DNA from: a virus
Lineage: Duplodnaviria > Heunggongvirae > Uroviricota > Caudoviricetes
Direction: 5' to 3' (one strand)
Virus record (IMG/VR): IMGVR_UViG_3300032323_001205
Span: 26,919 to 90,918 of that record
Length of the DNA stretch: 64,000 nucleotides
The position numbers and the translations under genes are program-made. The notes beneath the pieces were generated by a model that saw nothing but the letters and a program-made list of their open reading frames with translations, was not told the origin of the DNA and made no database searches. Positions 3,817 through 39,743 of this stretch are shown here, piece by piece. The first letter of the stretch is position 1, and the number at the start of each line of letters is the position of its first letter.

Positions 3817-3848
3817 GGTGTATATGTCATAGTTATAAAACAGTTATT

Positions 3849-3877: not shown

Positions 3878-3891
3878 GTATCACTAAAGTA

Positions 3892-8113: not shown

Positions 8114-9260
8114 CTAGTTTTACCTTGTCTGGTGCAGGAATTTTGCTGGGGTTAGCGTTCCACTCAGCACGAGCTTGTTCGCCAATTTTGCCTTCGTATG
8201 GGCAAGGTGTGCCGGCTGCCATCATAGCATCAAACACACGGCGATCTTGACACATAGTTGCTACAGCAGCTACCTTCATACCCATGTCAAATAGAGTCTT
8301 GCTAAGTTTTAGTCTTTCGCAATTTAAGTCACGTATAGTGCCACCGCCTGATACACCAAATACCTGTGTCTGCACACCGCCTGAACTACCTGTACTACAT
8401 AAATCAGCATTGCCGCCGCTTATCATTGCAGGAGCTATAGCAGTTGGTGGCGGCTGTATTACTCGTTGTGTAATATTGGTTTCGTTAATATTGCGGTTGG
8501 TCATATCTCCAGTGTTGACGTTTTGATTCACATTGGTATTGGCGTTGACATTGTTGCTAGTGCTAGTACTACTAGATGTGTTGATATTGCGGTTGGTCAT
8601 GTCACCTGTATTGACATTGTTGTTGGTACTAGTGCTAGTGTTAACATTGTTATTGTTGTTAGTAGAAGTGCTGGTATTAACATTGTTGTTGTTATAGGTC
8701 ATTGTACCCGAATTAATATTGTGGTTTGTATTAACACTTGTACTAGAACTAGTATTAGTATTATTATTGTTATAGGTCATCGTACCCGAGTTAATATTGT
8801 TATTTGTGTTAACGTTTGCACTTGAACTAGTACTAGCATTGTTATTGTTATACGTGATTGTTCCAGAATTAACATTGTTGTTGTTATTATTATACGTCAT
8901 TGTTCCAGAATTAACATTGTTGTTGTTAATTGTACTAGTACCAGAATTTATATTATTGTTAGTGCTCACACTGGTACTAACGTTATTATTATTGTTAGTG
9001 TTGGTACTTGTGCTGTTAACTGTGGCTGTACTGGTGCTATTGTTGGTGCTATTAGTATTGCTGTTTGATATCACGGTGCTGGTACTATTGCTAGTACTAT
9101 TTGTATCAACTAGCGTACTGCTATCATAACTACCTTGATTAATCAATGAGGTGTTATTAGTGGTAGTTCCTCCCGTGGTACTACTCGTGCTAGTATTTGT
9201 AGTTTGAGCCATTGCACCCGTAACAAAAGCAATAGCCAATGCTATTATTGTTTTTTTCAT
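8049..9260 (-). CDS. Secreted Asn/Ser/Thr-rich tandem-repeat protein with Cys-containing C-terminal domain
   Basis: 403 aa. Signal peptide MKKTIIALAIAFVTGAMAQ. Degenerate repeats (NNNNVNSGTMTYNNNN...). C-terminal ~120 aa contain 6 Cys and a hydrophobic tail (GLGALLGVLVHKLF). The 3' end overlaps the start of 5813..8113 by 65 nt in another frame. Confidence 0.6.
   Translation of the reverse strand: MKKTIIALAIAFVTGAMAQTTNTSTSSTTGGTTTNNTSLINQGSYDSSTLVDTNSTSNSTSTVISNSNTNSTNNSTSTATVNSTSTNTNNNNNVSTSVSTNNNINSGTSTINNNNVNSGTMTYNNNNNNVNSGTITYNNNNASTSSSANVNTNNNINSGTMTYNNNNTNTSSSTSVNTNHNINSGTMTYNNNNVNTSTSTNNNNNVNTSTSTNNNVNTGDMTNRNINTSSSTSTSNNVNANTNVNQNVNTGDMTNRNINETNITQRVIQPPPTAIAPAMISGGNADLCSTGSSGGVQTQVFGVSGGGTIRDLNCERLKLSKTLFDMGMKVAAVATMCQDRRVFDAMMAAGTPCPYEGKIGEQARAEWNANPSKIPAPDKVKLDENYKKIGLGALLGVLVHKLF
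8466..9130. repeat. Degenerate tandem repeat tract (roughly 50-65-nt units) inside CDS 8049..9260
   Basis: Visible reiteration of gtattaacattgttgttgttataggtcattgtacccgaattaatatt-like units. Encodes the N-rich repeats. Confidence 0.7.
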
Positions 9261-14035: not shown

Positions 14036-14566
14036 TTAATCTTTCTTTTTACTTGCCATTGATGTTATTTTAGGTTCAATATATCTTTTGTGATAATCTT
14101 TATAGTTATTGAGATAGTGTTCCCATTGAATCCAACGACTCTTTTTCTTTGTGTTGTCAACTAAAAATCCCCACTCACGCTGTTGAGGTCCCATGAAGAA
14201 CAATGTTGTTGCGGGACCCACACTTTCATCCATTTCGAGCCAATGATAATCTTTTGCTTTGCGAATGATTACTGATCCTGGACCACGCCACTTTTGAAAC
14301 TCTGCAATCTTTTTACCATCATTATTGAATACCGGAGTGTGTTCCCAATAACCACCCTTTAATATAATAGTCATGTAAGACCAGGGATGGTCGTGAAAGA
14401 TAGGATCGTCTGATTTGACAATCTTGTGTAATGTAACATTGAATGGGAACTTTGTGCGATCTTTTAAAAAGAGATAGTATCTATGCATATAGTCTTCACC
14501 TGTTTGACGATCAGGAATCAAACGATAACGACCTAGCTTGTTCATTAATGAGTGAAAGAATCCCAT
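14036..14566 (-). CDS. Hypothetical protein (possible cupin/His-rich metal-binding fold)
   Basis: 176 aa with HDHPW ... YHWLEM His-containing motifs. Family not identified. Confidence 0.4.
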   Translation of the reverse strand: MGFFHSLMNKLGRYRLIPDRQTGEDYMHRYYLFLKDRTKFPFNVTLHKIVKSDDPIFHDHPWSYMTIILKGGYWEHTPVFNNDGKKIAEFQKWRGPGSVIIRKAKDYHWLEMDESVGPATTLFFMGPQQREWGFLVDNTKKKSRWIQWEHYLNNYKDYHKRYIEPKITSMASKKKD

Positions 14567-14596
14567 ACAATGCTCCTAAAATATTTACAATGATAT

Positions 14597-14625
14597 ATTA
14601 TAACACATATTTGAATTAAATGCAA
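14597..14625 (-). promoter_or_regulatory. Sigma70-like promoter, class 2 (TTGCAT-N17-TATAAT); near-identical copy at 30427-30455
   Basis: A 34-nt block ttattataacacatatttgaattaaatgcaag is shared (about 30 of 34 identical) with 30425-30458. Both lie upstream of minus-strand genes. Confidence 0.5.
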
Positions 14626-14627
14626 GT

Positions 14628-14669: not shown

Positions 14670-14931
14670 TTAGACTGCGATGCCCAAAGACATTGCACGA
14701 TAACCTGCGGCTACTAACTCGCGGCTAGGTTGACCCAAACGGTACTTGGTAAAAGTACCACCAAGCTTGTTAGTACGCTTGTTAGCGTAAACTGCGAAAC
14801 CACTCAAACGAATGTTAGAGATAGTTGCTGTTGGGTTCTTAATACCAAAACGTGCAGAGATTTGCTTTGCGGTGAGTTCTTCACCAGACTGAAGTGCCTC
14901 TAGGACACGTGTTTGCTTAGTTACGTTCATT
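14670..14931 (-). CDS. Winged-helix/HTH DNA-binding protein
   Basis: Preferred start is MNVTKQTRVLEALQSG at 14931, with an AAGGAAA Shine-Dalgarno. The track start at 15026 lacks an SD. HTH-like LTAKQISARFGIKNPTATISNIR. Confidence 0.5.
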
Positions 14932-15026
14932 TTGTTTTCCTTTAAAAGTTCGTTGTTCTCACAACGTACATAGATTATACGATAGATTTTATCTTCGTAC
15001 AACACATTCTGGACACCTGTTTTCAT

Positions 15027-15875
15027 TTAGATATCCAAAAACTTTAGCTGAAATTCATCAGCCTGTTCATCCCATCCTGCATAACCTCTAGGATTACATA
15101 CCACTCTGGTTTCACCAACCATGTAATCAAATGGATCATGTGTATGACCATGAGTCCATAGTTTGATTTCTGGATGATCCAAAATGAATTCGCTCAAGTC
15201 ACTAGAATAACCACCGTTCATCAAATACTCATTCTGATATTTTGGATGTGTAGATAGTTTGCTAGGAGAATGATGTCCTGCAAATACAATCTTACGGTCC
15301 TTCATATCAGGAAGGATTGATTTAAGGTATGCAATAGTTTGTTGGTGACGATACATTGTATGTGCAGGGCGTAACTTAGTATACCCGTGTTCATCATTTC
15401 GGATAATACGATAGTCATTCATCATATCAGCCAATGCATGAAGTGTAAGAGGATCACCCTTATTACAATCAGTCCACAATGTAGCACCAATGAATGTTAC
15501 ATCATTGATAACCTTAACATCACGTTCCAAAAAGTAAACGTTGGTAAACTTTGCACATTCATCACGTAAATATTGTAGGCTAGCTTTCCACTTACCATGA
15601 TAGAATTCATGGTTACCGGCAATGTAAATAACATGCGGGAATTCAAAACTGCAACGCTTTAAAAAGTCACGGAAGCGAAGGGCAGTTTGTTGTCTACGAC
15701 CCAGGTCAGCAATGTTGACACTACTATACATTCCATAATCCATTTCAGGATGATTGTGCAGGTCCTCTGCAACCATAATGTCACCCGATAGGATGAGTAC
15801 CTCAGCACCTTCACTATTCGTGAGGTTGATGTCCTGAAACTCTAAGTGCAGGTCACTTGCTAGTGCGATTTTCAT
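15027..15875 (-). CDS. Calcineurin-like metallophosphoesterase
   Basis: 282 aa. MPE motifs LASDLH, SGDIMV (GD), IAGNHEF (GNHE), FAGHHSP, HGHTHD. Confidence 0.75.
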   Translation of the reverse strand: MKIALASDLHLEFQDINLTNSEGAEVLILSGDIMVAEDLHNHPEMDYGMYSSVNIADLGRRQQTALRFRDFLKRCSFEFPHVIYIAGNHEFYHGKWKASLQYLRDECAKFTNVYFLERDVKVINDVTFIGATLWTDCNKGDPLTLHALADMMNDYRIIRNDEHGYTKLRPAHTMYRHQQTIAYLKSILPDMKDRKIVFAGHHSPSKLSTHPKYQNEYLMNGGYSSDLSEFILDHPEIKLWTHGHTHDPFDYMVGETRVVCNPRGYAGWDEQADEFQLKFLDI

Positions 15876-16053
15876 TTAATAATTCTCTACATTTTTGTTT
15901 GACTGCCGCCGGGTAGTCGGGATGGAATTCTGCTATGTCGCAATTATAACGTATTACTCTTTCATTGTCAACCTCATAGTTGGCATATACAACGGTGATG
16001 GCAAGTATTATTACACAGACTATAACAATGATTGATTCGAATTTCATATCCAC
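15853..16053 (-). CDS. Small membrane protein
   Basis: 66 aa. TM segment IIVIVCVIILAITVVYA. Confidence 0.4.
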   Translation of the reverse strand: MDMKFESIIVIVCVIILAITVVYANYEVDNERVIRYNCDIAEFHPDYPAAVKQKCRELLNENRTSK

Positions 16054-17390: not shown

Positions 17391-17876
17391 TTACAGGGGC
17401 AATTCTTCTTTTTCTGCTTCGGCTTCTTTAGCAAAAGCCGCTGTCAACAAAACAAAGTCATCACCGTTATAGGATACGAACCAAGTAGGAACACCATTTA
17501 CATTACGCAGGATGTATTCATACTCCTCATACTGGTGATTCTGTTTGTAGTCTGCAAAGTCCTTGAAGTATCTGGCATTCACACCTTTTTCGCCGCGGTC
17601 ACGACCATAGAATGTAGTCATGTCACGATACAGGTTATAGTATACATCCTGTGTCATACCTTCCACATCATAGTGACTAAAAGGGTGTTTTGTACCGATA
17701 GATTCCTTCAAAGAACTAACATCACCCAAGTCGATCAATTCACGCAGTTTGAACGGGTCCTGATAATTCTCAAACAGGATCTTGCCGTTGTTAGACAAGT
17801 AACCATCCCAGTGGCAGTACACTTGACCAACAGTACCGTCAGCAAATTCCAAAGCGATTGTAGAACGTGTTGCCAT
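17391..17876 (-). CDS. Hypothetical protein (first gene after promoter 17910-17938)
   Basis: 161 aa. Consensus promoter immediately upstream. Confidence 0.5.
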   Translation of the reverse strand: MATRSTIALEFADGTVGQVYCHWDGYLSNNGKILFENYQDPFKLRELIDLGDVSSLKESIGTKHPFSHYDVEGMTQDVYYNLYRDMTTFYGRDRGEKGVNARYFKDFADYKQNHQYEEYEYILRNVNGVPTWFVSYNGDDFVLLTAAFAKEAEAEKEELPL

Positions 17877-17909
17877 TTTGTAGTCCTTTATTTAACTGTT
17901 TAAGATTCT

Positions 17910-17938
17910 ATTATATATCCAAACCGATTTATTGTCAA
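17910..17938 (-). promoter_or_regulatory. Sigma70 consensus promoter TTGACA-N17-TATAAT
   Basis: Plus strand attata 17910-17915, spacer 17, tgtcaa 17933-17938. Member of the 13-copy family. Confidence 0.7.
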
Positions 17939-18123
17939 CCGCGCTGATAGCGAGATTGGCTGAGGTATTCAATATCCACATTGATATCCTCGATCATGCC
18001 GTCAATCTGATTAGCAGACATTTGGTAGGCGTCAGTATCACCCAAAGCTTCCTTGATCTGGAACTTTGCGTACTCCAGAGTGTTGATAGCCTGTTCCAAT
18101 TTTAGTACTTTTTGATTACGCAT
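17935..18123 (-). CDS. Small early protein
   Basis: The track start at 18144 has no SD and lies 12 nt from the -10 element. The ATG at 18123 (MRNQKVLKLEQ...) has a GGAG Shine-Dalgarno 7 nt upstream. Confidence 0.45.
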   Translation of the reverse strand: MRNQKVLKLEQAINTLEYAKFQIKEALGDTDAYQMSANQIDGMIEDINVDIEYLSQSRYQRG

Positions 18124-18155
18124 TCGGAGACTCCGTTTTGTCATTCAATACAAGT

Positions 18156-18184
18156 ATTATATACCCAAAACCATTTATTGTCAA
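18156..18184 (-). promoter_or_regulatory. Sigma70 consensus promoter TTGACA-N17-TATAAT
   Basis: attata 18156-18161, spacer 17, tgtcaa 18179-18184. Confidence 0.7.
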
Positions 18185-18187
18185 ATT

Positions 18188-18460
18188 TTACACCAAGTCA
18201 ACCTGGACTTGTTTGCCGCGAATAGTAGCGCCTAGACCAACTGGAGTGGGCTCATTGAATACTTTAGCATTATAACGCATGTGAGCCAGTTTAATCATAG
18301 CCTCCCAGCAAACTGCACGGGCGGTTGTGGTAGCAAACATTTCCGTCATTTGCTGGATAGTCATATACATACCGATATCGTTCTCGGATCCGTCACCTTT
18401 GAAAATTACACGGAATTTTTGTGAATTTTTGAAGCCATCGATGATAGTTTTTGTACGCAT
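18188..18460 (-). CDS. Small early protein
   Basis: 90 aa, downstream of promoter 18494-18522. Confidence 0.45.
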   Translation of the reverse strand: MRTKTIIDGFKNSQKFRVIFKGDGSENDIGMYMTIQQMTEMFATTTARAVCWEAMIKLAHMRYNAKVFNEPTPVGLGATIRGKQVQVDLV

Positions 18461-18493
18461 TTCCTAGTCCTCTTTATCAGTTTCAATACATGT

Positions 18494-18522
18494 ATTGTAG
18501 CACAATACCCATTTATTGTCAA
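18494..18522 (-). promoter_or_regulatory. Sigma70 consensus promoter TTGACA-N17-TACAAT
   Basis: attgta 18494-18499, spacer 17, tgtcaa 18517-18522. Confidence 0.65.
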
Positions 18523-18524
18523 AT

Positions 18525-18761
18525 TTAGGCTACTTTTTGATCCATCATTTCAGCAAGGATAAACTTGGCTACGTTCATTTGCTTACGAACATATTCAACT
18601 GAGTGAGGACCAGTACCCATTGCCATCATTTCTTGGCAGTCACTCATAATGCCCATCACGACCATTTCCAGCCCCGAACACTTAGCGGTAATACTTTCCA
18701 TGTACTGTGTACGGATTTCTTGTTCAGACATACCATAGCACTTAGATTCAAATTCAGTCAT
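18525..18761 (-). CDS. Small early Cys/Met-rich protein
   Basis: The track ORF (to 18830) reads through the promoter; its N-terminal residues IFDNKWIWAYNTCIES are simply the translation of TTGACAATAAATGG...TATAAT. The real start is MTEFESK at 18761, with an AAGGAA Shine-Dalgarno. Confidence 0.5.
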   Translation of the reverse strand: MTEFESKCYGMSEQEIRTQYMESITAKCSGLEMVVMGIMSDCQEMMAMGTGPHSVEYVRKQMNVAKFILAEMMDQKVA

Positions 18762-18791
18762 TTCAGTTCCTTTTATCGATTCAATACATGT

Positions 18792-18820
18792 ATTATAAGC
18801 CCAAATCCATTTATTGTCAA
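18792..18820 (-). promoter_or_regulatory. Sigma70 consensus promoter TTGACA-N17-TATAAT
   Basis: attata 18792-18797, spacer 17, tgtcaa 18815-18820. Confidence 0.7.
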
Positions 18821-18828
18821 ATATTGGC

Positions 18829-18879
18829 AAAATCGCTAGAGGTGTATCAAGATATGTTCCTGAAACCTCTAGCGATTTT
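18829..18879. repeat. 15-bp perfect inverted repeat with 21-nt loop, followed by a CCCCTGAGGGG hairpin (18884-18894); likely rIIB terminator / RNA processing structure
   Basis: aaaatcgctagaggt ... acctctagcgatttt. It lies between the rIIB stop (18939) and promoter 18792-18820. Confidence 0.5.
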
Positions 18880-18938
18880 GAAGCCCCTGAGGGGTGAAAA
18901 GTAATACTTTAGTTTACCTTTTTAGTACACAAAAGTAC

Positions 18939-19979
18939 TCATTTTTTGGGGAACGGCCATGCACTATCCTGTGCTGTAAAGACTGTTCCCGGGGGAGGAC
19001 TTACTTTGCCGTCACTATGTCGAGTCCAACCAGCTGGAGTGCTCACATACTGATAGCGAGGATCATATCCCCAATCCGCATCATCCTGACCCTTTTCGTA
19101 ACCTTCTTCGTAGTTTTTGTTCTGCAGGCTAGCTTGTCCTCGGTTACCAGGGGTGTATTCATTACCTTCATAACCATCAGTGTAGCCACGATAGAATTCC
19201 GTAGAACCAGTCTTTGGCTCAGTCTTCACACTGTTAGCATTATGTTGTACAGGCTTGTCAAACTCAACCTTATCGTCGGGGTTTGCACCCACTTCGCCGA
19301 TAACTTCATAACGACATGCACGACCCTTAGCGTTGTTGTAATCTGTTGGGATAGAAACAACATCACGTGGATTGATTTTAACAATCACAACACGACTATC
19401 ACTGCCACCAAAGTGAGGAAGATATTCTTGGCTACAGAAGTGCAGACCAGTACTGCAAGTTTGATCCTTGTTGTCGTCAACTTCGTTGCGTTCCATTTCA
19501 ACAATTTTACCAACACTGTTATCCATCTTGCCTGTATGACAGTCAAAATAGTTTTGACGTACTTTCTTGTAAGCCAAAAAATGACCATCAGGAGTAATTG
19601 GCAAACTGTTCTTTTCCAAGAAGCCATACAGTTCATCAACTGCACGTTTGCTTGGGTTAGTCATCAAGTTCTCCATGAATGCAACAAGAGGCTCGATAGG
19701 GAAACCATCTTGCAACATTGCAATCATTCGGTTACTCAATGCATTGTGCATCTCCTTACCCTTCCAGAACAACTTTTCGCCCTGGACACTCACGTTGCCT
19801 TGACCGTAATTCAAAACGACCTTAACAGGCTCAATGATATTCTTAACCAAGTCCCAATCACTAGCCTTGATAGCTTCCAACACTTTGTTATAAGTGATGT
19901 GTGATTTACTAATTGTGTGAGGCTTGTTGCCAATCACTACAGTAATGTTACTGCCCTGAACGATATACGGATAACTCAT
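18939..19979 (-). CDS. rIIB: rIIB protein
   Basis: Strong collinear similarity to T4 rIIB (ENLMTNPSKRAVDELYGFL, YFDCHTGKMDNSVGKIV, DQTCSTGLHFCS, FGGSDSRVVIVKINPRDVVSIPTDYNNAKGRACRYEV). The track start at 20003 is TTG. The ATG at 19979 has an AAGGTG Shine-Dalgarno and abuts the rIIA stop. There is a ~100-aa G/Y/E-rich C-terminal extension relative to T4. Confidence 0.85.
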   Translation of the reverse strand: MSYPYIVQGSNITVVIGNKPHTISKSHITYNKVLEAIKASDWDLVKNIIEPVKVVLNYGQGNVSVQGEKLFWKGKEMHNALSNRMIAMLQDGFPIEPLVAFMENLMTNPSKRAVDELYGFLEKNSLPITPDGHFLAYKKVRQNYFDCHTGKMDNSVGKIVEMERNEVDDNKDQTCSTGLHFCSQEYLPHFGGSDSRVVIVKINPRDVVSIPTDYNNAKGRACRYEVIGEVGANPDDKVEFDKPVQHNANSVKTEPKTGSTEFYRGYTDGYEGNEYTPGNRGQASLQNKNYEEGYEKGQDDADWGYDPRYQYVSTPAGWTRHSDGKVSPPPGTVFTAQDSAWPFPKK

Positions 19980-19980
19980 T

Positions 19981-22143
19981 TTAAACACCTTTTGAAGAAT
20001 CAATCAAATTAATATACTCGGCAACATACATGCCGTGTGCGCTGTGTTTGCTGATGCTCTTAATCAACGGGTAACGTTGAAAAATTGCTTCAACCTCTTT
20101 GTTGTATTTGTCAATCAATGTAGCAGGGTCAACTGTTGTTGCTGTTACTACTTTGTACTGACGACACAACCATTCCAAACTCATTCTAACCTTATGGTCA
20201 CTTTCTTTCACATCCTTGAATGTGTTGAACAATGTCAAGTAAGGGCTGTGAGGATTTGTCACATGCTTAGTAGCATTATACTGATAAATCTCTTTCCAGT
20301 CAATACTTTGTTTGACCAAACCCATCACATCATTTTGACCCAACTTAGACAATTTCTCAGTCACAAATGTATCCAGATTGATCCAGTTCTTTTGTGTCTT
20401 GACCCAATCCAAATCACTTTTACGAACACCGTAAATTTCATTAGTGAAAATGTAACTATCACGCAAGTGTTGTTCCAAACTCTTGATATTTTCAACAGTA
20501 CCAAGGTTCTTGTAACCACTTAGTGGCAAGTAGTAATACGTTTCAGTAGCATCAAAACTGTTTGCTTTGCCACCATCACGCCATACCATATCAGCACGAT
20601 TGCGCCAACCACGACTACGACCTTCTTCCAATCGCATGATAGTAACATTCGCACCCATGCCGCCCTTACGATCCTTCTCAAGCAATTCACTTGCTTTGGC
20701 GATGCGATTAGTGGGAGGCATCATCAATTCAGCCAAGAAAGCAACCTTCTCAACCATCTTAGATTTATCAGCAGGCTCAATCACATACACATTTGATGTG
20801 TGTGTATCTGTCTTGATATTCTTCCAGTGATGTTTAGCACGTTCCAACGCACCAACCTTAGTGTCGTTGAACACAAAGTATGTTTCGTTACCTACACGGA
20901 TATCCCATTCTTCAAACAACACCTCAGTGTTATTTACAGTCTTGCGAGACTTAGTTGGCTTGTTATTAGAACAAGCCGCATAACTATTGGTCTTAGTAAA
21001 ACTACGAATTACAATGTTATACTTGCTAGCCAAGTCCTTAGTATCAAACTTGAATGTTTTGAATGCGTTCCAACGATTGGTACCTGGATCATACAATTCA
21101 AACTTAGTATCAGCCGCATACTTAATCACCGCACCCTTGAACAAGGTACCTTCGTCATAACGCTTTGCCAAGTAGATAGCACGTTCCCACAAGTTGTCAA
21201 TCTTATCTGCCTCTTGTGCCACGTGAATTGCCAATTGACTATTCAGCGCCATCAATTTGTTTTTGATAGCTTCGATTGTTTGTGGAATATAACTCAGACC
21301 TTCACGGCTTGCTTGAAAGTCAAGTTCACCGATCTTGAATTCCATCACAAGACCGCAACCCAACAAGCCATGCATACCACCAAGCACTTTGTCAGCATTA
21401 GGGATGTCAATAGGATACTTGATATTACCCATGATAGCATAACTGCTACGGGCATAACTATCGTTCGAATAGTGAACACCGGGGATGATGTTTTCTTCTT
21501 TATAATCGGGATCCTTGAATGTAAAATCAGCATTACCTGAAATTACAGGACGCAGTTTGAAATACTCATACACATAGCGAGCCTCGTCACGGAACTTGCC
21601 AAAGTCATACCGATCTGCTACTGCAAAGCGAACCTCAACACCGTTAGGGTCTGTAGTTTCTTCATCCATCATCAATGCGATAGATGGAACGCCTTGCTCA
21701 TTAATGAAGGCAGAGTAGATTCCCTTCTTACCGTTCTGTACCGCGGTAACCGTAAAATTGTCTGTATAAGAGAAGGGTGACTTTGAACCAAGACCAAGCG
21801 CACCGATAAATTCATTGCTTGCGGTCTTAGTGGATTCGAAATATGTAGTGTAGATATTAGTGACTTGGTCATGGCTCAGACCAGTGCCATAGTCACGAAT
21901 CGAAAAATAGGGTTCGATACTGTTAGGCAAGTGAACATCGAAGGGTGTATTTTGTTTGCCTGCCGCAACATGGCTGTCCACAGCATTGCAAGAAAGTTCA
22001 CGGATGATAGCACGAACCTTGTTCGCATACAGACCGGAACTTAGAATGCTAAAAGCCTTAGCACTATTGCGAATACGAAATTCACCAACGTCACTTACGT
22101 TGGAGATGATTGCTTCGTTTTGTGGTGCGTGATTGATAATCAT
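19981..22143 (-). CDS. rIIA: rIIA protein (GHKL-type ATPase N-terminal domain)
   Basis: 720 aa (T4 rIIA is 725). N-terminus aligns with T4 rIIA: KAFSILSSGLYANKVRAIIRELSCNAVDSH (N box), IRDYGTGL (G1), FIGALGLGSKSPFSYTDNF (G2). Confidence 0.9.
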   Translation of the reverse strand: MIINHAPQNEAIISNVSDVGEFRIRNSAKAFSILSSGLYANKVRAIIRELSCNAVDSHVAAGKQNTPFDVHLPNSIEPYFSIRDYGTGLSHDQVTNIYTTYFESTKTASNEFIGALGLGSKSPFSYTDNFTVTAVQNGKKGIYSAFINEQGVPSIALMMDEETTDPNGVEVRFAVADRYDFGKFRDEARYVYEYFKLRPVISGNADFTFKDPDYKEENIIPGVHYSNDSYARSSYAIMGNIKYPIDIPNADKVLGGMHGLLGCGLVMEFKIGELDFQASREGLSYIPQTIEAIKNKLMALNSQLAIHVAQEADKIDNLWERAIYLAKRYDEGTLFKGAVIKYAADTKFELYDPGTNRWNAFKTFKFDTKDLASKYNIVIRSFTKTNSYAACSNNKPTKSRKTVNNTEVLFEEWDIRVGNETYFVFNDTKVGALERAKHHWKNIKTDTHTSNVYVIEPADKSKMVEKVAFLAELMMPPTNRIAKASELLEKDRKGGMGANVTIMRLEEGRSRGWRNRADMVWRDGGKANSFDATETYYYLPLSGYKNLGTVENIKSLEQHLRDSYIFTNEIYGVRKSDLDWVKTQKNWINLDTFVTEKLSKLGQNDVMGLVKQSIDWKEIYQYNATKHVTNPHSPYLTLFNTFKDVKESDHKVRMSLEWLCRQYKVVTATTVDPATLIDKYNKEVEAIFQRYPLIKSISKHSAHGMYVAEYINLIDSSKGV

Positions 22144-22149
22144 AATATA

Positions 22150-22350
22150 TTAAACTGTTTGAGTTTGGATTGCTTCATAGACCATTTCGCGGACTACAGT
22201 ATCAGTTGCTTCCTCGAATCCATTCAATGTAGCGATATCATATAACACATCAACCACTTGGTCCCAATCCAAGTTATTTGCTTTTGCTGTCATAACAACA
22301 CCTTGAATCATTGCATTACCTGCATCCGAGAACATACCAAATCGTGTCAT
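22150..22350 (-). CDS. Small early protein, paralog of 22408..22623
   Basis: 66 aa. Shares ...EATDTVVREMVYEA with its neighbour (...EATDTAVRECVYDA). Own consensus promoter. Confidence 0.5.
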   Translation of the reverse strand: MTRFGMFSDAGNAMIQGVVMTAKANNLDWDQVVDVLYDIATLNGFEEATDTVVREMVYEAIQTQTV

Positions 22351-22382
22351 TTCAAGTCCTTTTCTTTACTATCTAAGATTCT

Positions 22383-22411
22383 ATTATAGCAGAAAGCCCA
22401 TTTATTGTCAA
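22383..22411 (-). promoter_or_regulatory. Sigma70 consensus promoter TTGACA-N17-TATAAT
   Basis: attata 22383-22388, spacer 17, tgtcaa 22406-22411. Confidence 0.7.
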
Positions 22412-22623
22412 ATATAGAAAGGAGTGTCAAAGCCAAGGGCGTCATAGACACACTCACGGACTGCGGTGTCAGTAGCCTCGCCAAAGTCTTCGGGGAAACG
22501 CTCAGCCAAACTTTGGAGTTCAGCAAGAACTTGGGGCCAATCCATTTTGAGTACTTTAGCACTACGCACGATTGCGTCAATTGCATCATCACCAAACTCT
22601 GTGTACATTGCGTATTTGGACAT
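22408..22623 (-). CDS. Small early protein, paralog of 22150..22350
   Basis: 71 aa. See the paralog evidence above. Confidence 0.5.
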   Translation of the reverse strand: MSKYAMYTEFGDDAIDAIVRSAKVLKMDWPQVLAELQSLAERFPEDFGEATDTAVRECVYDALGFDTPFYI

Positions 22624-22655
22624 TTTGTTTCCTTTACTTGACTGTCTAAGATTCT

Positions 22656-22684
22656 ATTATAGCAGAAAGCCCATTTATTGTCAA
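22656..22684 (-). promoter_or_regulatory. Sigma70 consensus promoter TTGACA-N17-TATAAT
   Basis: attata 22656-22661, spacer 17, tgtcaa 22679-22684. Confidence 0.7.
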
Positions 22685-22686
22685 AT

Positions 22687-22911
22687 TTAGGCGAACAAGT
22701 CGCCGTACATTTCTTCTTCCACAGCATCAAAATCATTGCGGATCCATTCGATAGAATAACCCTTAGATGCATACTCGTCGGCTAACACCTGCAATTCACG
22801 CAGGGCTTGCACAGCAGTCAGTCCATCATTTGCCATGAGGCTCAGATTGCTACAGTACATGAAATTGTTGCTGTCTTTGCGGGCACTAACTTGAACAAAT
22901 TGCTTAGTCAT
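22687..22911 (-). CDS. Small early acidic protein
   Basis: 74 aa with its own promoter. Confidence 0.45.
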   Translation of the reverse strand: MTKQFVQVSARKDSNNFMYCSNLSLMANDGLTAVQALRELQVLADEYASKGYSIEWIRNDFDAVEEEMYGDLFA

Positions 22912-22943
22912 TTCGAGTCCTTTAGTTAACTGTCTATGTATGT

Positions 22944-22972
22944 ATTATATACCCAAAACGATTTATTGTCAA
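22944..22972 (-). promoter_or_regulatory. Sigma70 consensus promoter TTGACA-N17-TATAAT
   Basis: attata 22944-22949, spacer 17, tgtcaa 22967-22972. Confidence 0.7.
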
Positions 22973-22985
22973 ATTTTGGAAACCG

Positions 22986-23008
22986 TAAAAAAGCCCCAAA
23001 CTCGGGGC
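22986..23008 (-). terminator. Intrinsic terminator downstream of clpP
   Basis: Minus strand reads GCCCCGAGTTTGGGGC followed by TTTTTT. Confidence 0.6.
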
Positions 23009-23022
23009 AAAAAGTAGTACTT

Positions 23023-23613
23023 TTATAGTCGTTTATCAATGATTTTGTCAATCAAGCCATACTCTAGTGCTTGCTGTGCTGACATAAAATTATCACGTTC
23101 CATATCATTGGTTAATTGTTCAAACGTTTTCCCGGCACTATTATGCTTAACATAAATTTCAGTAAGATTCTTTTTCATAGCAAGAATTTCTTCTACTTGA
23201 ATCAACATATCAGTTGCCTGACCTCGGGCACCGCCACTTGGCTGGTGAATCATGTGTCGTGCGTTTGGCAGCATAAAACGTTTACTAGTAGCACCTGCTT
23301 GAGCAAGCAAACTACCCATGCTACAGGCTTGACCCATTACAATTGTATTAATGTCGGGCTTGATAAACTGCATAGTGTCATAGATTGCCATACCAGCAGT
23401 AACACTACCACCGGGGCTATTGATATACATACTGATATCTTTTCCACTGTCCTCACTCTCTAGGAATAGTAGTTGTGCAACAATCAAATTTGCCATTTGG
23501 TCATGTACTTCTCCCTCAAGCAAAATGACCCGGTCACGTAATAACCGACTATAAATATCATAACTCCGTTCACCCTTACTTGTGTGTTCGATGACGATTG
23601 GGACTAGACTCAT
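23023..23613 (-). CDS. clpP: ATP-dependent Clp protease proteolytic subunit ClpP (canonical cellular type)
   Basis: 196 aa. Catalytic-triad context [10 protein letters not shown] (Ser), MIHQPSGG (His), plus the [19 protein letters not shown] box. Confidence 0.9.
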
Positions 23614-27303: not shown

Positions 27304-27522
27304 TTAAAAGTTTTTCTTTGGAAGACTTTGGTCACGCAAATATTTTTGCCATCTACGTTTAGCCTGGCTTTTTGCCACCTTACGCCTTACCGTCGGTTTA
27401 ATAAACTCTTGCCGGTCACGGACTTCCTGAAGCAAGCCTACGTCATTGATTAATTTCTTAAACTTGCGTAGTGCTTTCTCAGTGTTACCGTCTACAACAA
27501 TTATTTTTCTTCCTCGTATCAT
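27304..27522 (-). CDS. rpsU: 30S ribosomal protein S21
   Basis: 72 aa. [32 protein letters not shown] aligns with E. coli S21 [32 protein letters not shown]. Confidence 0.85.
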
Positions 27523-28718
27523 AGTAAAGTTTTGGGCTGTAATATTTGAGCTTGATTAATATTTATCTTTTTGATATTATTTTCTCTATATTTCTTGGTA
27601 TGATACATGTGCGGCATAAGCACTTTCTCAATTTCAGTATGCAATCCTCGTGCTCCAGTCTTTAACTTCATGGTATTTTCAGCTAACTGTTCAATTGCAT
27701 CTTCTGTAAATTCTAAGTCGATTCCATCCAAGCTTAACAAGTATTTGTACTGGTCAATATAATTATTTTTTACTCCAGTCAATACTTCAATCATTTCTTC
27801 TTTAGACAAATTAGAAACACTAACTGTTGTAGTAAAACGACCGATAAACTCAGGAATCATACCAAACTTAGTTAGGTCATCAGGGGTAACATTCGTTAAT
27901 CCTATTTCTTTGCGATTGTCTTTGATTTCAGCGCCAAAACCAATACTAGTACCGTGTTCTCTGTTATTAATTATTTCTTTGAGTCCAACGAATGCGCCGC
28001 CGCCAATAAACAATATGTTTTTTGTGTTTATTTCTAGCATGTCTCCACCGGGATGCTTTCGCCCACCGCTAGCAGGTATACGGCATACAGTTCCTTCAAC
28101 TAGCTTAAGTAGTGCTTGCTGAACGCCCTCACCGGACACATCCCGTGTTATGCTAGCACTCTCACTTTTACGTGCAATCTTGTCAATTTCGTCAACAAAA
28201 ACAATTCCACGTTCTGCTAATTTCGGGTCTCCGCCGGCAGCATTAACTAGCATACTAATCATAGATTCAACATCGTCACCAACATATCCTGCTTCAGTCA
28301 AGCTTGTAGCATCGGCCACTACAAAAGGCACGTTGAGATATTTTGCTACTGTTTTTGCTAATAGTGTTTTACCTGAACCTGTAGGACCAATCAACAACAC
28401 GTTACCTTTAGAGATTTCCAAGTCTTTTGGCGGTTTATTGATACGCTTATAGTGATTAGCAATTGCAACACTTAGCACCATTTTTGCATTGTCTTGGCCT
28501 ATGATATGATTATCTAAATACTCTTTGATAGACTCGGGGTCATATACTATTCCGTCTCCTTTGTTTTCAATTTCAGAAACATCGTCTACAATTAGTTGGT
28601 TACATAATTCTATGCAAGCACTGCATATAGCTACATTCTCACTTACAATTAATTTTTTTACTACGTCTTTGTGGTTACCACAAAAGGAGCAATGATTTAG
28701 TTTTGTATCATTTGACAT
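27519..28718 (-). CDS. clpX: ATP-dependent Clp protease ATP-binding subunit ClpX
   Basis: 399 aa. N-terminal C4 zinc finger ([30 protein letters not shown]), Walker [17 protein letters not shown], Walker [11 protein letters not shown], and a GF loop. Confidence 0.9.
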
Positions 28719-28733: not shown

Positions 28734-29738
28734 CTAGTGTCTTGTCGAACATTTTTCTAATTTAACAACTGATAATTCTACTCTATATGCATCCTTAAGT
28801 ACAGCACTTAACACTGAGTTAGGTGAAATAGGTAGAGTTATTAGTCCTTGATCTTGCTGGTTACCGTATAAAACAAAGTTATTACCCAATACATAGTACG
28901 ACGGTTTCTTTCCATTAATAGAATTACTCTCATAGCAATTTCGATATACTTCTACCAGCTGTTTGTTTTTTATGGATAGTTGAATTCTAGCTTCATTGTA
29001 ACCAGTAAATGAATCATTAATTTTATGAACACGCAGAATGTCATTAAATTTATAAACTTCTTTTTTACCAATCAACAAATTGTTAGGGTCCTTAGCCATG
29101 ACAGTAACTGTACCCGATGATGGCTGCATGAATCCATTGCTACCATCTTGTAAAAGACCCAATACTTCATTAAGTGATACTATGTAATTGTAGTTCCAAT
29201 TCATTGAGTATGGGATTCGCAATAACATGTTTCTATGTGCATCTAGTCTAACTTCGTGCATACCTTGACGGATAGAGTATGCCTTCGTAGGATAATCATT
29301 TAAAACAGTGTCGAGAATCCTGTCACCTTGAAGTCTATCTCGGATATAAGATGAATGCTGAACTGTGTGCCGATGTCCTTCTAATTCTTTTATATTCGTA
29401 CCTGACCCTAACAATCTATTTTTAATCTTGCTATCAGAAACAGTAACGTCAACAGTGACCACTATATTCTTTCCGTTAGTAGATTCGGATACAATATTGT
29501 ACTTGTCAATGTAGCCAGAACTAAACACGGAAATTTCGTTCTTCATTAATTTGAGGTTATGCGATTCTCGTTCACTTAAGACAAGACTTCCCATCTTATA
29601 CTCAATAGCTTTAATGAAGGCATTGTGCCTAGCCTGTTCAGATGTAGCACCTACACCAGATACTCTAATAATGTCACTATTAGAGGTAGTAGCGCAACCC
29701 CCAAGCAAAAAGCTTGCCAATAGTATAATAAATTTCAT
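28734..29738 (-). CDS. Lipoprotein with LPP20-like N-terminal domain
   Basis: 334 aa. Lipobox LLGGC at the signal-peptide end. IRVSGVGATSEQARHNAFIKAIEY resembles the LPP20/FlgO-type VxGxG...A...A pattern. Confidence 0.55.
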   Translation of the reverse strand: MKFIILLASFLLGGCATTSNSDIIRVSGVGATSEQARHNAFIKAIEYKMGSLVLSERESHNLKLMKNEISVFSSGYIDKYNIVSESTNGKNIVVTVDVTVSDSKIKNRLLGSGTNIKELEGHRHTVQHSSYIRDRLQGDRILDTVLNDYPTKAYSIRQGMHEVRLDAHRNMLLRIPYSMNWNYNYIVSLNEVLGLLQDGSNGFMQPSSGTVTVMAKDPNNLLIGKKEVYKFNDILRVHKINDSFTGYNEARIQLSIKNKQLVEVYRNCYESNSINGKKPSYYVLGNNFVLYGNQQDQGLITLPISPNSVLSAVLKDAYRVELSVVKLEKCSTRH

Positions 29739-30397
29739 TATTGTTGAATGAAACGACTACGCAAGTAATTGCTTGCCCGTTCACTATTAGTATCCCATCT
29801 GATAACAACTTTAACAGTTTGTGGGCCTACAATTTCTTCATTGATGGTTCTAGCACCTTTGACGATGCCTTGTGCGTTAGTACGTACCGTGTCAGTCATT
29901 GTTCTAACTGTATCACTGGTATTTTTGCGTACAGCAATGTTGGTATCCTTCATTGCTTCTTCGTCAGTCATTTCGAATTCTTCATCACGCTTGATACGGC
30001 GTTTGATATTATCTTCTGCCTTCTCAATATTCTTAGCAATAGTGGTAGTTACTCTAGTTGATGAAATATCTTGTTTTACAAAACGAATCAACTTATCAAG
30101 TGCTTGGTCGTGTGCTACTTTGAATGCAGTCTCACGCATGACCTCACTAGCACCAAATGAAGGCGCATAACCTGTTACTTCGATTGCTTTGATATCACTC
30201 TTAATGCATGTTGCATCAAATACACCGGTAAAATATTTACAGTCCCATTCGATTTTGATACCTTGCCGTTTGAAACTAGAACTTAGTTTTTGCGCATTCA
30301 GTGCTTCGATGGGTGCCGATTCCACTGTTGCTTTTTTAGCAGATGAACATCCTGCCAAAGCAATAACTGTTGCAATAGCAATTAACGTGAGTTTCAT
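29738..30397 (-). CDS. Lipoprotein with LPP20-like N-terminal domain
   Basis: 219 aa. Lipobox ALAGC. IEVTGYAPSFGASEVMRETAFKVAHDQALDKL. Driven by class-2 promoter 30427-30455. Confidence 0.55.
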   Translation of the reverse strand: MKLTLIAIATVIALAGCSSAKKATVESAPIEALNAQKLSSSFKRQGIKIEWDCKYFTGVFDATCIKSDIKAIEVTGYAPSFGASEVMRETAFKVAHDQALDKLIRFVKQDISSTRVTTTIAKNIEKAEDNIKRRIKRDEEFEMTDEEAMKDTNIAVRKNTSDTVRTMTDTVRTNAQGIVKGARTINEEIVGPQTVKVVIRWDTNSERASNYLRSRFIQQ

Positions 30398-30426
30398 TTA
30401 AATCTCCAAATAGTTGATAATAGTTT

Positions 30427-30455
30427 ATTATAACGTATATTTGAATTTAAATCAA
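30427..30455 (-). promoter_or_regulatory. Sigma70-like promoter, class 2 (TTGATT-N17-TATAAT)
   Basis: Near-identical 34-nt copy of the 14597 element. Confidence 0.5.
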
Positions 30456-32074
30456 GATTTTTGGTTCTGTAAGTGTTGTTCTATTTGGGCACGTTCGTTG
30501 TCAGACAGTAACTCAACATCGTATTCGCCCTTTTCTAGTTTCTCAACCAAATATTGTATGTACTTTTGATCATGCAAATAGGTATCAGATTGGTTCTTGT
30601 TGACCTCGATCCATCTAGCACCGTCAAATTTAAACACTCGGTTCGGCAACACATCCACGCGGGTGAATACATCACCTTTTCTAGATTGCTCAGGAAATTT
30701 AATTCCAAATCCCGTGCTTATTCCGGTAGTATCCGGTGATAGTCTAAACAACTCTGGGTGTAAACTTTTTAATGCATCAATATGAATAGATTTTCCATCA
30801 TACAACACATAGTCACCTTCTGATTCCTTGTACAGTTTTTCAGGAGCCTTCTTCTCAACAGTGACACCATCCGTAACAATCTCTATGTTATCAGCAGTTA
30901 CAGTTTGGTCAACTTTAGGTTCAACTATAACTTCAGGTTTGTACACTATTGGAATTAAATCTTTAAAGTGGCTAAACGGTTGATTCAAATAAGGATGTAG
31001 TTCTGCTAGTGTCTTTTCAGGCTGCACGATTGGTTCAGGTGCAACAAATTTCCAAACTACTCCCTCAATATTATCTATTACATCACATTGTTTGTTAGGA
31101 CAGAACAGTCCGATACCAGGAGCATCCATTAATATTGTACCACATTTATGACACTCGATAGGCTCATCTGGAAGTAACTCTGATTTAGTAATTAACTCGC
31201 CAGTGGGCAAATCTTCCTTAGCAGTTTCTTGAACTTGTACAAGTTGTTTATCGGTTAGTGGCCCGTCATCGGGCTCGTATACTGGTTCGTCTTTAACAGG
31301 TTCTTCTTTATCCCATTTTTTACTTGCATTAGCCGCAAGTACAAGTGCGATAGCTAATGGATCAAACACAACAACTAATAATATAATAACCCATCTAACA
31401 GCAGATTCTAGTGTATTGTTGTCACTAGTGTCTCCGTAAATCAATGCGGCAATGTACTTAATAGGTCCAACTTCTGCTTCTACTTTACGATTCTCAGCCG
31501 CAATAGGTGCTCGTTCTTCATTTAGTTTAGCGATCTCTTTTTGAGCATCACTAATATCTTTTTGTAATTTACTACGTTCACCGGCTTGCTGTCTACGAAT
31601 CTGTACAGCACGTTCGGCACTAGTTTCACTATCACCGCGACTTAAACGTTGATCAACTTGGTTGTCCATTTGAGTCAATGCTTTACGTGCTAGTTCAATG
31701 TTGTCTCTTTGTGTTTTTATTTTTTCATCATATAGACTTAGTTTAGCTTGCACATCCCCGGATACCAATCCACTATCCATGTGTGCCTTACTTAAGAAGC
31801 CAAAAATGCCCATACTAGTAAGCAGAGCAAGTGCAATAACAGCGGGAACTAGATAGAGTTTAAGTAACCAACTAGCACGATGCCAATATTTATGTAACCA
31901 TACTGTGGTTGTGATCTTACCTATTTCAAGGATACCACCCATAATGATAACAGGAATAACCGCACCTGCAAAGATAGCGGTTAAACCTATAATACTATAC
32001 CATGCCGCTACTGAACTAAGTGATAGTGCAACAAGTAATGTAATATTAGAAAATGATAAAAATTTAAGGCGCAT
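30452..32074 (-). CDS. Polytopic membrane protein with central coiled coil and C-terminal Cys-motif domain
   Basis: 540 aa. Three N-terminal TM segments, a ~150-aa heptad region, another TM, then CHKCG...CPNKQC. Confidence 0.55.
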   Translation of the reverse strand: MRLKFLSFSNITLLVALSLSSVAAWYSIIGLTAIFAGAVIPVIIMGGILEIGKITTTVWLHKYWHRASWLLKLYLVPAVIALALLTSMGIFGFLSKAHMDSGLVSGDVQAKLSLYDEKIKTQRDNIELARKALTQMDNQVDQRLSRGDSETSAERAVQIRRQQAGERSKLQKDISDAQKEIAKLNEERAPIAAENRKVEAEVGPIKYIAALIYGDTSDNNTLESAVRWVIILLVVVFDPLAIALVLAANASKKWDKEEPVKDEPVYEPDDGPLTDKQLVQVQETAKEDLPTGELITKSELLPDEPIECHKCGTILMDAPGIGLFCPNKQCDVIDNIEGVVWKFVAPEPIVQPEKTLAELHPYLNQPFSHFKDLIPIVYKPEVIVEPKVDQTVTADNIEIVTDGVTVEKKAPEKLYKESEGDYVLYDGKSIHIDALKSLHPELFRLSPDTTGISTGFGIKFPEQSRKGDVFTRVDVLPNRVFKFDGARWIEVNKNQSDTYLHDQKYIQYLVEKLEKGEYDVELLSDNERAQIEQHLQNQKS

Positions 32075-34575: not shown

Positions 34576-34752
34576 TTAAAAAATAACAACGATTGAAATT
34601 AATACCGCAACCGTCAGTATAGCACATAGTATACTATACCCTACAATTTTTGTCAAGGCTAATGCCTCTTTACCTGTAATATTTCTTAGGGTTTTGATAC
34701 CCAAAAAGAATAGTACAAAAATTAATACAAAAAATAGCAAAACTTTAATCAT
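34576..34752 (-). CDS. 58-aa two-TM micro-protein (below track cutoff)
   Basis: My translation is MIKVLLFFVLIFVLFFLGIKTLRNITGKEALALTKIVGYSILCAILTVAVLISIVVIF. Its ATG overlaps the stop of 34749..35015 as ATGA. Confidence 0.4.
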   Translation of the reverse strand: MIKVLLFFVLIFVLFFLGIKTLRNITGKEALALTKIVGYSILCAILTVAVLISIVVIF

Positions 34753-35015
34753 TCTTCAACTCCGAAATGTTCTAAAATCAATTCTCTCGCTTGGTTCAAA
34801 CCACCAAGATTAGTTGTAACGCCTTCACTAAACTGTAACTCACAGTCTTTGTTAATAACTGCGGCACATTCACGCACAATCTTCTCAGCGAAACGCTCCA
34901 AATCAACCATTACACTACTGTATGGATCACCATTCTTTAACTTATCGTAAGGATCTGTGATACAATCATATATGCCACCTGTGATGGCTAAATCTCTAAT
35001 CAGTTGTTTGTTCAT
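34749..35015 (-). CDS. Small protein, HFGVEE paralog family (copy A)
   Basis: 88 aa. Shares ...FAEKIVRECA... and C-terminal LEHFGVEE with 35012..35233 and 38583..38786. Confidence 0.55.
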   Translation of the reverse strand: MNKQLIRDLAITGGIYDCITDPYDKLKNGDPYSSVMVDLERFAEKIVRECAAVINKDCELQFSEGVTTNLGGLNQARELILEHFGVEE

Positions 35016-35233
35016 TCTTCAACTCCAAAATGTTCTTTAATCAATACAGGCACTCGATTAATAGTGGAATCCACGCTGATTGCCCATTCAACAACAGTCT
35101 GACATTCCTGCACAATCAACTCGGCGAACTTTTCCAGTCTTTCATGATGACGCCAAATATTAATATTATTGTCGTGTGGATATGCCTGTTCAGCAAGTTC
35201 TTTAATTCGTTCGTTCATCTGGATCTTTCTCAT
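35012..35233 (-). CDS. Small protein, HFGVEE paralog family (copy B)
   Basis: 73 aa. ...KFAELIVQEC... KEHFGVEE. Confidence 0.55.
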   Translation of the reverse strand: MRKIQMNERIKELAEQAYPHDNNINIWRHHERLEKFAELIVQECQTVVEWAISVDSTINRVPVLIKEHFGVEE

Positions 35234-35405
35234 AACAGGTTAAACATACAGCATCATGGCGTGGACCCATACAATGATAGACGGCGCCGTTACAATACTT
35301 ACAAAGAATAAACGCATGGGTGACAATATAACCTTCGCCAGGCGCATACAAAGGATAAAATCCTTCTTCCCGTTCTGTATAACCAATTAGTTTACGGTCG
35401 GTCAT
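35202..35405 (-). CDS. Cys-rich zinc-ribbon protein
   Basis: 67 aa. CKYCNGAVYHC ... CLTC. Confidence 0.4.
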   Translation of the reverse strand: MTDRKLIGYTEREEGFYPLYAPGEGYIVTHAFILCKYCNGAVYHCMGPRHDAVCLTCYEKDPDERTN

Positions 35406-39709: not shown

Positions 39710-39743
39710 GTTTAACTCCTGTTGTTTGACTGTCTAAGACTCT

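Follow-up and report, generated by a model that had tools for sequence, protein, structure and literature searches.

A clade-wide family of putative promoter-leader units borders shuffled small-gene cassettes in an uncultivated jumbo phage lineage

Certain T4-type phages—RB49/phi1, T4/PST and KVP40/nt-1—carry so-called promoter-early stem-loops (PeSLs), in which a near-perfect sigma70 promoter and a stem-loop, which serves as terminator or attenuator upstream of the promoter or within it, are joined to the Shine-Dalgarno sequence and ATG of a small ORFan gene (PMC2839356, PMC4122927). PeSLs cluster in hyperplastic regions, sit at insertions and deletions, and recombine within the unit, giving rise to mini-circles excised during infection (PMC2839356, PMC4122927). 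Here, we describe a family of promoter-like units in a Caudoviricetes genome, each combining TTGACA-N17-TATAAT with a conserved spacer and 5′ leader ahead of a mostly small gene. The 64,000-nucleotide (nt) stretch analyzed, hereafter the window (positions 26,919 to 90,918 of IMG/VR record IMGVR_UViG_3300032323_001205), is part of a 348,244-bp metagenomic contig of an uncultivated jumbo phage. We put at roughly three in four the probability that these are promoter-leader units optimized across the RNA polymerase footprint, which would double as homology patches for the shuffling of gene cassettes.

The core, read on the plus strand as ATTATA-N17-TGTCAA, occurs at 14 exact sites within the 64 kb, as compared to 0.03 expected, and at none in 100 shuffled sequences. 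As an original prediction made from the letters alone had noted, all 14 serve the minus strand, invariably with a 17-nt spacer. That prediction counted thirteen perfect copies; the family is real, but the copy at 18494-18522 carries TACAAT, and the exact sites at 15943-15971 and 36830-36858 had escaped it; both are located at the 3′ end of a preceding ORF, 70-100 nt ahead of the gene that follows, and both are kept in relatives. A search allowing one mismatch recovered 18494-18522 along with a few weaker sites, bringing the family to 15 copies (14 exact and one near).

Alignment split the 15 copies into two classes. Ten have in common a longer unit, aaaR.TTGACAATAAAT(G/C)G.TTTGG..TATAATA, which continues into one of two leaders: F1 (AGAATCTTAGACAGT; copies 17938, 22411, 22684 and 39772, and approximately 22972 and 40067) or F2 (AC(A/T)TGTATTGAA, i.e., ACWTGTATTGA; copies 18184, 18522 and 18820, and approximately 49402). 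An AAGGA-type ribosome site follows, and then an ATG 30-35 nt past the -10 box. It is for these ten that the predicted spacer and leader subfamilies hold. The five generic copies (3877, 15971, 36858, 46607 and 48550) have only the hexamers and an A-rich spacer start in common, and precede larger genes (for a DEAD-box helicase, a 5′-3′ exonuclease, a ligase and a phosphoesterase). Most of the ten units fall into clusters at 17.9-18.8, 22.4-23.0 and 39.7-40.1 kb, with product lengths in amino acids (aa):

17874-17941, minus strand: P17938 unit; -35 at 17933-17938, -10 at 17910-17915, F1 leader AGAATCTTAAACAGTT, ATG at 17876; target, the 161-aa gene 17391-17876
18121-18187, minus strand: P18184 unit; -10 at 18156-18161, -35 at 18179-18184, F2 leader ACTTGTATTGAA, ATG at 18123; target, the 62-aa ORFan 17935-18123
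18458-18525, minus strand: P18522 unit; TACAAT as -10, TG extended -10, F2 leader ACATGTATTGAA, ATG at 18460; target, the 90-aa ORFan 18188-18460
18759-18823, minus strand: P18820 unit; F2 leader, ATG at 18761; target, the 78-aa ORFan 18525-18761
22348-22414, minus strand: P22411 unit; spacer ATAAATGGGCTTTCTGC, TG extended -10, F1 leader, ATG at 22350; targets, the 66-aa gene 22150-22350, then rIIA and rIIB
22621-22687, minus strand: P22684 unit; spacer identical to that of P22411, F1 leader, ATG at 22623; target, the 71-aa paralog 22408-22623
22909-22975, minus strand: P22972 unit; leader ACATACATAGACAGTT, ATG at 22911; target, the 74-aa ORFan 22687-22911
39707-39775, minus strand: P39772 unit; F1 leader AGAGTCTTAGACAGTC, ATG at 39709; target, the 85-aa gene 39452-39709
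40013-40070, minus strand: P40067 unit; spacer ATAAACAAAATTGGTGT, F1-like leader with a 2-nt insertion, ATG at 40015; target, the 76-aa ORFan 39785-40015
49341-49405, minus strand: P49402 unit; core-family spacer, TG extended -10, F2-like leader AAACGTATTCAATAG, ATG at 49343; target, the 263-aa gene 48552-49343

Most units directly adjoin the preceding gene's stop codon or run into it. Promoters 22684, 22411, 18522 and 18184 begin no more than 2-3 nt from that stop or overlap it, and at 22411 and 17938 the TGA of the upstream gene sits within TTGACA itself. The placement before very small genes was borne out: neither Pfam nor PHROGs gave a match for products of 62-90 aa, which is what one would expect of early accessory genes, and the 161-aa protein matched a single PHROG of unknown function. 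Most driven genes show no relationship to each other. A single paralog pair was found among them, 22150-22350 and 22408-22623 (40% aa identity, E 1e-13), whose units are 85% identical at variable positions; near-identical units before such diverged paralogs fit a uniformity reinforced by recombination. The original prediction had proposed two such pairs; no second pair appeared among promoter-driven genes even at E < 5. A small paralogous family at 34576-35311 and 38583-38786 (minus strand), with conserved start regions GGAGTTGAAGAATG and without perfect promoters upstream, may be what had been meant. The repeats also mislead gene callers, as had been predicted: the open reading frame (ORF) 22347-22772 contains FDNKWAFCYNRILDS twice, and from the TTG of the P48550 -35 box the helicase ATG (48496) is reached in the same frame without a stop on the way, which accounts for the helicase's apparent TTG start.

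To define the family beyond the window, we scanned IMG/VR with TTGACAATAAAT-N11-TATAATA, which returned at least 120 loci. Approximately 70 or more of the loci listed match parts of the window at 65-88% DNA identity, including contigs of 348-367 kb, and together with the window the listed loci hold at least 307 distinct units. Among the matches listed, the informative positions—those not set by the search pattern—were R at -37, S at -23, G at -22, TTT at -20 to -18, GG at -17/-16, G/T then T/G at -15/-14, Y at -1, W at +1 and T at +2. In most of these units, an ATG preceded by AAGGA or GGAG lies 30-34 nt past the -10 box. The consensus spans roughly -40 to +12, and its upstream edge is sharp, with little conservation beyond -40. 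F1 leaders account for at least 110 of the listed units (in 46 loci) and F2 leaders for at least 46 (in 35 loci), next to some small families; the discriminator carries G at -5 in F1 and C at -5 in F2. TCTTAGACAGT is nearly invariant in 61 strictly defined F1 units, and ATAAAT after the -35 box is near-invariant as well; since the search used to collect the units preset both ATAAAT and the A at -6, conservation at these positions is inflated. Relatives also have a third leader family, TATAATACACTTATGAACTCG, with at least 11 units in 9 loci, which looks leaderless; the leaderless TATAATACACTTATGAAC type known from relatives is not present in the window.

The units are usually conserved more strongly than the genes that they precede. 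When the same gene was compared between genomes, units were usually 86-95% conserved versus 66-84% for the first 150-240 nt of the gene; at P17938, orthologous units in relatives L020, L119, L013 and L083 were 86-95% identical versus 74-84% for coding DNA. Either spacer type (TTGG-type or TG extended -10) pairs with both leader families, a sign of reassortment. Identity at variable positions was 0.48 within a locus, 0.52 between adjacent units and 0.38 between loci, a modest signal of within-genome homogenization in a comparison confounded by the fact that some loci are unrelated phages. A scan of 185,579 bacterial and archaeal species, each represented by one genome, gave no F1-type unit and no host clue, and the unit was also missing from cultured phages (blastn against INPHARED); judging from these searches, the unit family therefore appears specific to this phage clade.

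Comparison with the relatives further revealed that similarity tends to break at the units. Of 255 endpoints of similarity segments of at least 200 bp, 45 (17.6%) fell inside units, as compared to 1.9% expected from the share of the window that units occupy, and 16 lay exactly on the first T of the -35 box. At P39772, similarity begins precisely at that T in all nine relatives, and the upstream cassette varies between genomes. Gene order tells the same story. With P for a unit and g for a small gene labeled by product length, the window reads clpP-P-g74-P-g71-P-g66-rIIA-rIIB-hairpins-P-g78-P-g90-P-g62-P-g161, and L062 reads clpP-P-?-P-g85-P-g74-P-g90, placing the 74-aa gene that P22972 precedes in a different neighborhood. 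L083 has three units followed by g90 and g161 but no rII genes, and in L053 g74 is missing. Depending on the genome, one cassette, a different one or two occupy the slot ahead of the 85-aa gene, all bounded by F1 units: the 76-aa gene in the window, an unrelated 111-aa gene in L007 and L066, a 111-aa and a 106-aa gene in L073, and a 111-aa and a g71-like gene in L041 and L099. Small ORFan genes are thus inserted, deleted and replaced between units. The original prediction was right to see promoter-gene cassettes, and the relatives widen that picture, in that units bound the swapped genes. Exchange also occurs within units. L020 lacks the 78-aa gene, and its 90-aa gene is preceded by the hairpins, -35 box and spacer of the window's P18820 joined to an F1 leader, whereas the window copy of this gene comes with F2, which makes the L020 unit a mosaic, with crossovers within the unit.

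According to the original prediction, each promoter follows a terminator, forming insulated transcription units. Several structured elements do lie upstream of units:

22987-23008, minus strand: intrinsic terminator, GCCCCGAGTTTGGGGC followed by T6, after clpP and directly upstream of P22972
40073-40099, minus strand: intrinsic terminator, AAAAAGCCCC-TTAATT-GGGGCTTTTTT, upstream of P40067
18821-18945, minus strand: three-hairpin intergenic module after rIIB, containing a 15-bp inverted repeat and ending in a T-run
40111-40123, minus strand: palindrome AAAAGTAATACTT at a stop codon, ahead of terminator and promoter
3887-3899, 18897-18909 and 23010-23024: further copies of the palindrome AAAAGTAnTACTT(TT)

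The first two are canonical GC hairpins with a T-run; the second (minimum free energy (MFE) -19.5 kcal/mol, z -4.5) was overlooked by our pattern scan because its T-run forms part of the stem. Within the module after rIIB, 18821-18900 (its 3′ 80 nt) folds into a long hairpin (MFE -36.2 kcal/mol, z -8.6). The module is kept in L020, L082, L062 and L074, where four pairs are preserved via changes on both sides. Because changes in these four relatives are compensatory or wobble, the module is a selected RNA or DNA structure rather than a mere inverted repeat, and likely a terminator or 3′-end structure. Only three of the 15 window copies thus have a terminator-like hairpin upstream. Among the matches listed, 28 units (~9%) have a strict terminator-like hairpin, and for 26% the upstream 50 nt fold with an MFE below -10. 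Since most units instead abut or overlap a stop codon, "each" and "insulated" were overstated. Such hairpins, where related units have them, are terminators of a stereotyped GCCCC-loop-GGGGC form, and the AAAAGTAnTACTT palindrome at the stop often comes before them. With five matches in the window against 0.34 expected, AAAAGTAnTACTT(TT) always lies at the stop codon of a gene, usually followed by the GCCCC-loop-GGGGC terminator and then a promoter unit; over 1.06 Mb (window plus loci), 10 of 16 occurrences of the palindrome have a unit less than 110 nt downstream. Too short for a stable fold, it may be a protein-binding site.

What might the conservation beyond the hexamers do? One suggestion had been a shared RNA element in the 5′ untranslated region (5′ UTR). 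We rejected a structured element of this kind (riboswitch, leader or thermometer): 100 leaders folded slightly worse than their shuffles (mean z +0.5), and a search of the whole window matched no Rfam family. Whole units gave z values of about 0, i.e., no RB49-style hairpin in the spacer. Independent protein-binding sites were likewise rejected, in that spacer and leader motifs were found only within promoters. RNA polymerase covers DNA from -50 to +20 (PMC12464699), and the conserved block falls inside this footprint. E. coli prefers T at -18 and TTT centered there, sensed via sigma70 R451 (PMC3130263); the spacer TTT at -20 to -18 comes close. The initial transcribed sequence, moreover, strongly sets output and escape, notably at escape-limited promoters (PMC5961368, PMC12464699), and we would expect a perfect-consensus promoter to need a tuned one. 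The earlier statement that the conserved block is more than a promoter needs is therefore only partly right: the block lies within the footprint and includes known strength determinants.

We thus propose that the units are strong promoters for the host's primary sigma70-type polymerase, most likely used early in infection, each fused to a short, unstructured 5′ leader ending in a ribosome-binding site. A portable unit of ~65-75 bp, from about -40 to the ATG, would supply a small gene with its own start of transcription and translation. Two forces would shape it. The first would be selection across the whole polymerase footprint, as a perfect promoter must capture polymerase yet let it escape efficiently; this could account for the A-rich stretch after the -35 box, TTT(G)G near -18 or the TG extended -10, A at -6, G or C at -5, and the fixed initial transcribed sequence. 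The second would be recombination: units would serve as short homology patches where recombination adds, removes or replaces cassettes and joins them to other unit halves, and this exchange would homogenize the units. Its mechanism would be general homologous recombination, not a dedicated enzyme.

Several points weigh against this proposal. Timing and activity are read from sequence alone. ATAAAT at -29 to -24, its conservation inflated as described, and the exact TCTTAGACAGT have no established polymerase contact demanding them, and simple optimization does not predict two discrete leader families. Similarity endpoints, finally, favor intergenic DNA anyway, so that part of the 9-fold enrichment may be generic.

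A speculative elaboration of the same model, improbable though still credible in our view, is that the units make up a clade-wide cassette grammar: the two leaders, which differ at the discriminator and in the initial transcribed sequence, would be interchangeable alleles setting distinct expression programs, and the units, some of them with a GCCCC hairpin and an AAAAGTAnTACTT palindrome, would be preferred or even enzyme-assisted sites for the exchange of accessory genes between co-infecting phages. If true, the programs could differ in open-complex stability or in sensitivity to a phage factor.

Alternatively, the spacer and the -6 to +12 block could form the operator of a phage DNA-binding protein, such as an early repressor or a factor re-targeting the polymerase. 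The near-invariance of ATAAAT, and of TCTTAGACAGT in the 61 strict F1 units, would suit such a site, as would short dyads (TCTnAGA in F1, ACATGT in some F2 copies, and TTGAC...GTCAA) and a winged-helix protein encoded nearby at 14670-15026. Yet the dyads are short and not family-wide, in that GTTAA outnumbers GTCAA and ACTTGT outnumbers ACATGT; the spacer and leader motifs are confined to promoters; two unrelated leader types go with the same spacer types; and nothing ties the winged-helix protein to the unit sites. We consider an operator unlikely as the explanation, although it is compatible, and could coexist, with footprint-optimized promoter units.

A leader acting as RNA, as a site for translational repression or enhancement or for ribonuclease cleavage, strikes us as quite unlikely. 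It would resemble the situation in T4, where RegA and RegB act on early mRNAs. The sequence is kept up to the ribosome site in at least 110 F1 and at least 46 F2 units with constant spacing to the ATG, and the A/U-rich leader stretch TTAAnTAAAGGA is presumably similar to known translational enhancers. The leaders nevertheless lack secondary structure and an Rfam family, as described, either leader type can precede the same gene, and the best-conserved stretch (-6 to +9) spans the predicted start, so that half of it lies outside the RNA.

We would be surprised if the units were sites of a dedicated, integron-like or other site-specific cassette system with a phage recombinase. Cassette insertions and deletions are bounded by units, many similarity breaks fall exactly at the -35 box, and some units come with the stereotyped GCCCC...GGGGC hairpin and AAAAGTAnTACTT palindrome. 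However, no recombinase, integrase or homing endonuclease was recognized among the 38 window proteins scanned, crossovers fall at differing places inside the unit, the sharp break at the -35 box is also just the point at which unit homology ends, and 60-70 bp of homology are enough for T4-type recombination (PMC2839356). Scarcely credible is the idea that the family merely traces recent tandem promoter-gene duplications with the extra sequence unselected: the adjacent paralogs 22150-22350 and 22408-22623 with their nearly identical units would fit, but the same consensus recurs in at least 307 units and in genomes with coding DNA ~70% identical (66-84% at the gene starts compared above), the driven genes are mostly unrelated, and units stay at least 85% identical where paralogous proteins fall to 40%.

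Outside the ten units, the five generic promoters lie as follows:

48494-48553, minus strand: P48550, generic promoter before the helicase gene 46610-48496 (ATG at 48496)
46570-46610, minus strand: P46607, generic promoter before the 5′-3′ exonuclease (FEN) gene
36830-36858, minus strand: consensus promoter in the 3′-terminal part of gene 36755-37267; the DNA ligase ATG (36751) follows after ~80 nt
15943-15971, minus strand: consensus promoter within ORF 15853-16047, ~70 nt before the metallophosphoesterase ATG at 15875
3814-3880, minus strand: P3877, generic promoter before the 131-aa gene 3421-3816

The exonuclease ATG begins 7 nt past the TATAAT of P46607, which leaves no space for a ribosome site, and this TATAAT-N6-ATG layout is retained in L002, L066, L064 and L114; a leaderless mRNA is predicted for this gene. 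Relatives contain near-identical counterparts of the 36830-36858 promoter, and L020 keeps that at 15943-15971 (at P[10200]). A second shared promoter-like sequence, CTTG(C/A)(A/T)TT(T/A)AATTCAAATAT(G/A)(T/C)GTTATAAT, combines TATAAT and an extended -10 with a weaker -35, and may represent a different promoter class:

14584-14626, minus strand: second promoter-like sequence, before gene 14036-14566 and preceded by a GC hairpin
30414-30456, minus strand: second promoter-like sequence, before gene 29738-30397

With respect to its relationships, the lineage is very poorly represented among cultured phages. Megablast and blastn searches with the region, and with a single unit, found no DNA match among 50,697 INPHARED phage records; rIIA is less than 45% identical to every INPHARED counterpart; the 628-aa helicase protein had zero tblastn matches (E ≤ 1e-5) in the same records; and several further large window proteins (766, 540, 442 and 424 aa) lack a PHROG family. 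The region codes for rIIA, rIIB, ClpP, a ClpX-like ATPase, an ATP-dependent ligase, a FEN-type 5′-3′ exonuclease, and UvdE, SprT-like and GNAT proteins. Genes referred to here include:

46610-48496, minus strand: DEAD/Helicase_C protein, 628 aa
23023-23613, minus strand: ClpP
27519-28718, minus strand: ClpX-like ATPase
14670-15026: winged-helix protein

The nearest phage homologs of ClpP and the ClpX-like protein are in very large phages (Atu_ph07, phage G and Phosso), at ~50% identity for ClpX. Within the window, no capsid or tail genes were recognized, no tRNA genes were found and no Rfam families matched. Imperfect tandem repeats, whose starts are 36, 42 and 78 nt apart, occur at 8536-9006 (plus strand) within ORFs 8466-9129, indicating a repetitive protein-coding region.

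The family may be of practical use. Units mark true gene starts and correct spurious ORF calls, and they could predict likely early accessory genes, be it for host takeover or anti-defense. They also offer natural, compact and putatively very strong promoter and ribosome-site parts, and the two leader types amount to a natural experiment in how discriminator and initial transcribed sequence may tune a perfect-consensus promoter.

Of the known systems, PeSLs come closest. Both have a near-consensus TTGACA-N17-TATAAT and end in a Shine-Dalgarno sequence and start codon; both cluster in variable regions rich in small ORFans, lie at insertions, deletions and replacements between relatives, and show crossovers inside the unit; and the hairpin, where present, is of the GGGG/CCCC type. 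Unlike PeSLs, most units here lack a stem-loop (it accompanies 3 of 15 copies in the window and 9-26% of the at least 307 units listed), there is neither the stem-loop between -35 and -10 that is common in RB49 nor a long AT-rich block upstream, and conservation across the clade takes in the whole spacer as well as two discrete leader types. PeSL carriers are T4-type (Straboviridae). The carrier here is a ~348-kb uncultivated jumbo phage that has rIIA, rIIB, ligase and a FEN-type exonuclease, its rIIA being less than 45% identical to any in INPHARED and its helicase unmatched there. The units work like PeSLs and should not simply be filed as such.

A second likeness is to the T5 promoters PN25, P25, P26 and P28, which are very strong sigma70 promoters with conservation extending past the -10 box into the initial transcribed region. 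We take the unit discriminator AGAATC to be similar to AGATTC of PN25, and the TTGA motif of F2 presumably has its like in T5 early promoters. In T5 promoters, however, the -35 boxes depart from the consensus and a strong A/T block lies near -43, and these promoters are not known to bound shuffled cassettes. In T5, the initial transcribed region controls promoter escape and output (PMC12464699, PMC5961368); the window has no sequence or genomic relationship with T5.

The early promoters of T4 are alike in their many copies, their long consensus and the small genes that they serve. Present in dozens per genome, with a consensus reaching far beyond the hexamers, they are used by unmodified host polymerase immediately after infection and often precede small non-essential genes, including those of the rII region. 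Their -35 box is GTTTAC-like, and an A-rich element near -42 is tied to Alt modification; here, by contrast, the -35 box is a perfect TTGACA and little is conserved upstream of -40. Lambdoid morons, described by Hendrix and colleagues as single accessory genes with their own promoter and sometimes a terminator between other genes, provide a looser analogy as autonomous, promoter-carrying accessory-gene units. Morons have no single repeated promoter-leader sequence and are usually expressed from a prophage, whereas here a lytic-type jumbo phage carries units that all belong to a single sequence family.

The mechanism is thus of a known kind, but the family runs clade-wide over hundreds of units and is larger than first predicted. 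Promoter-mediated modular shuffling, until now reported only from cultured phages of the T4 type, is thereby extended to a deeply divergent clade of uncultivated jumbo phages, with hundreds of examples drawn from metagenomes.

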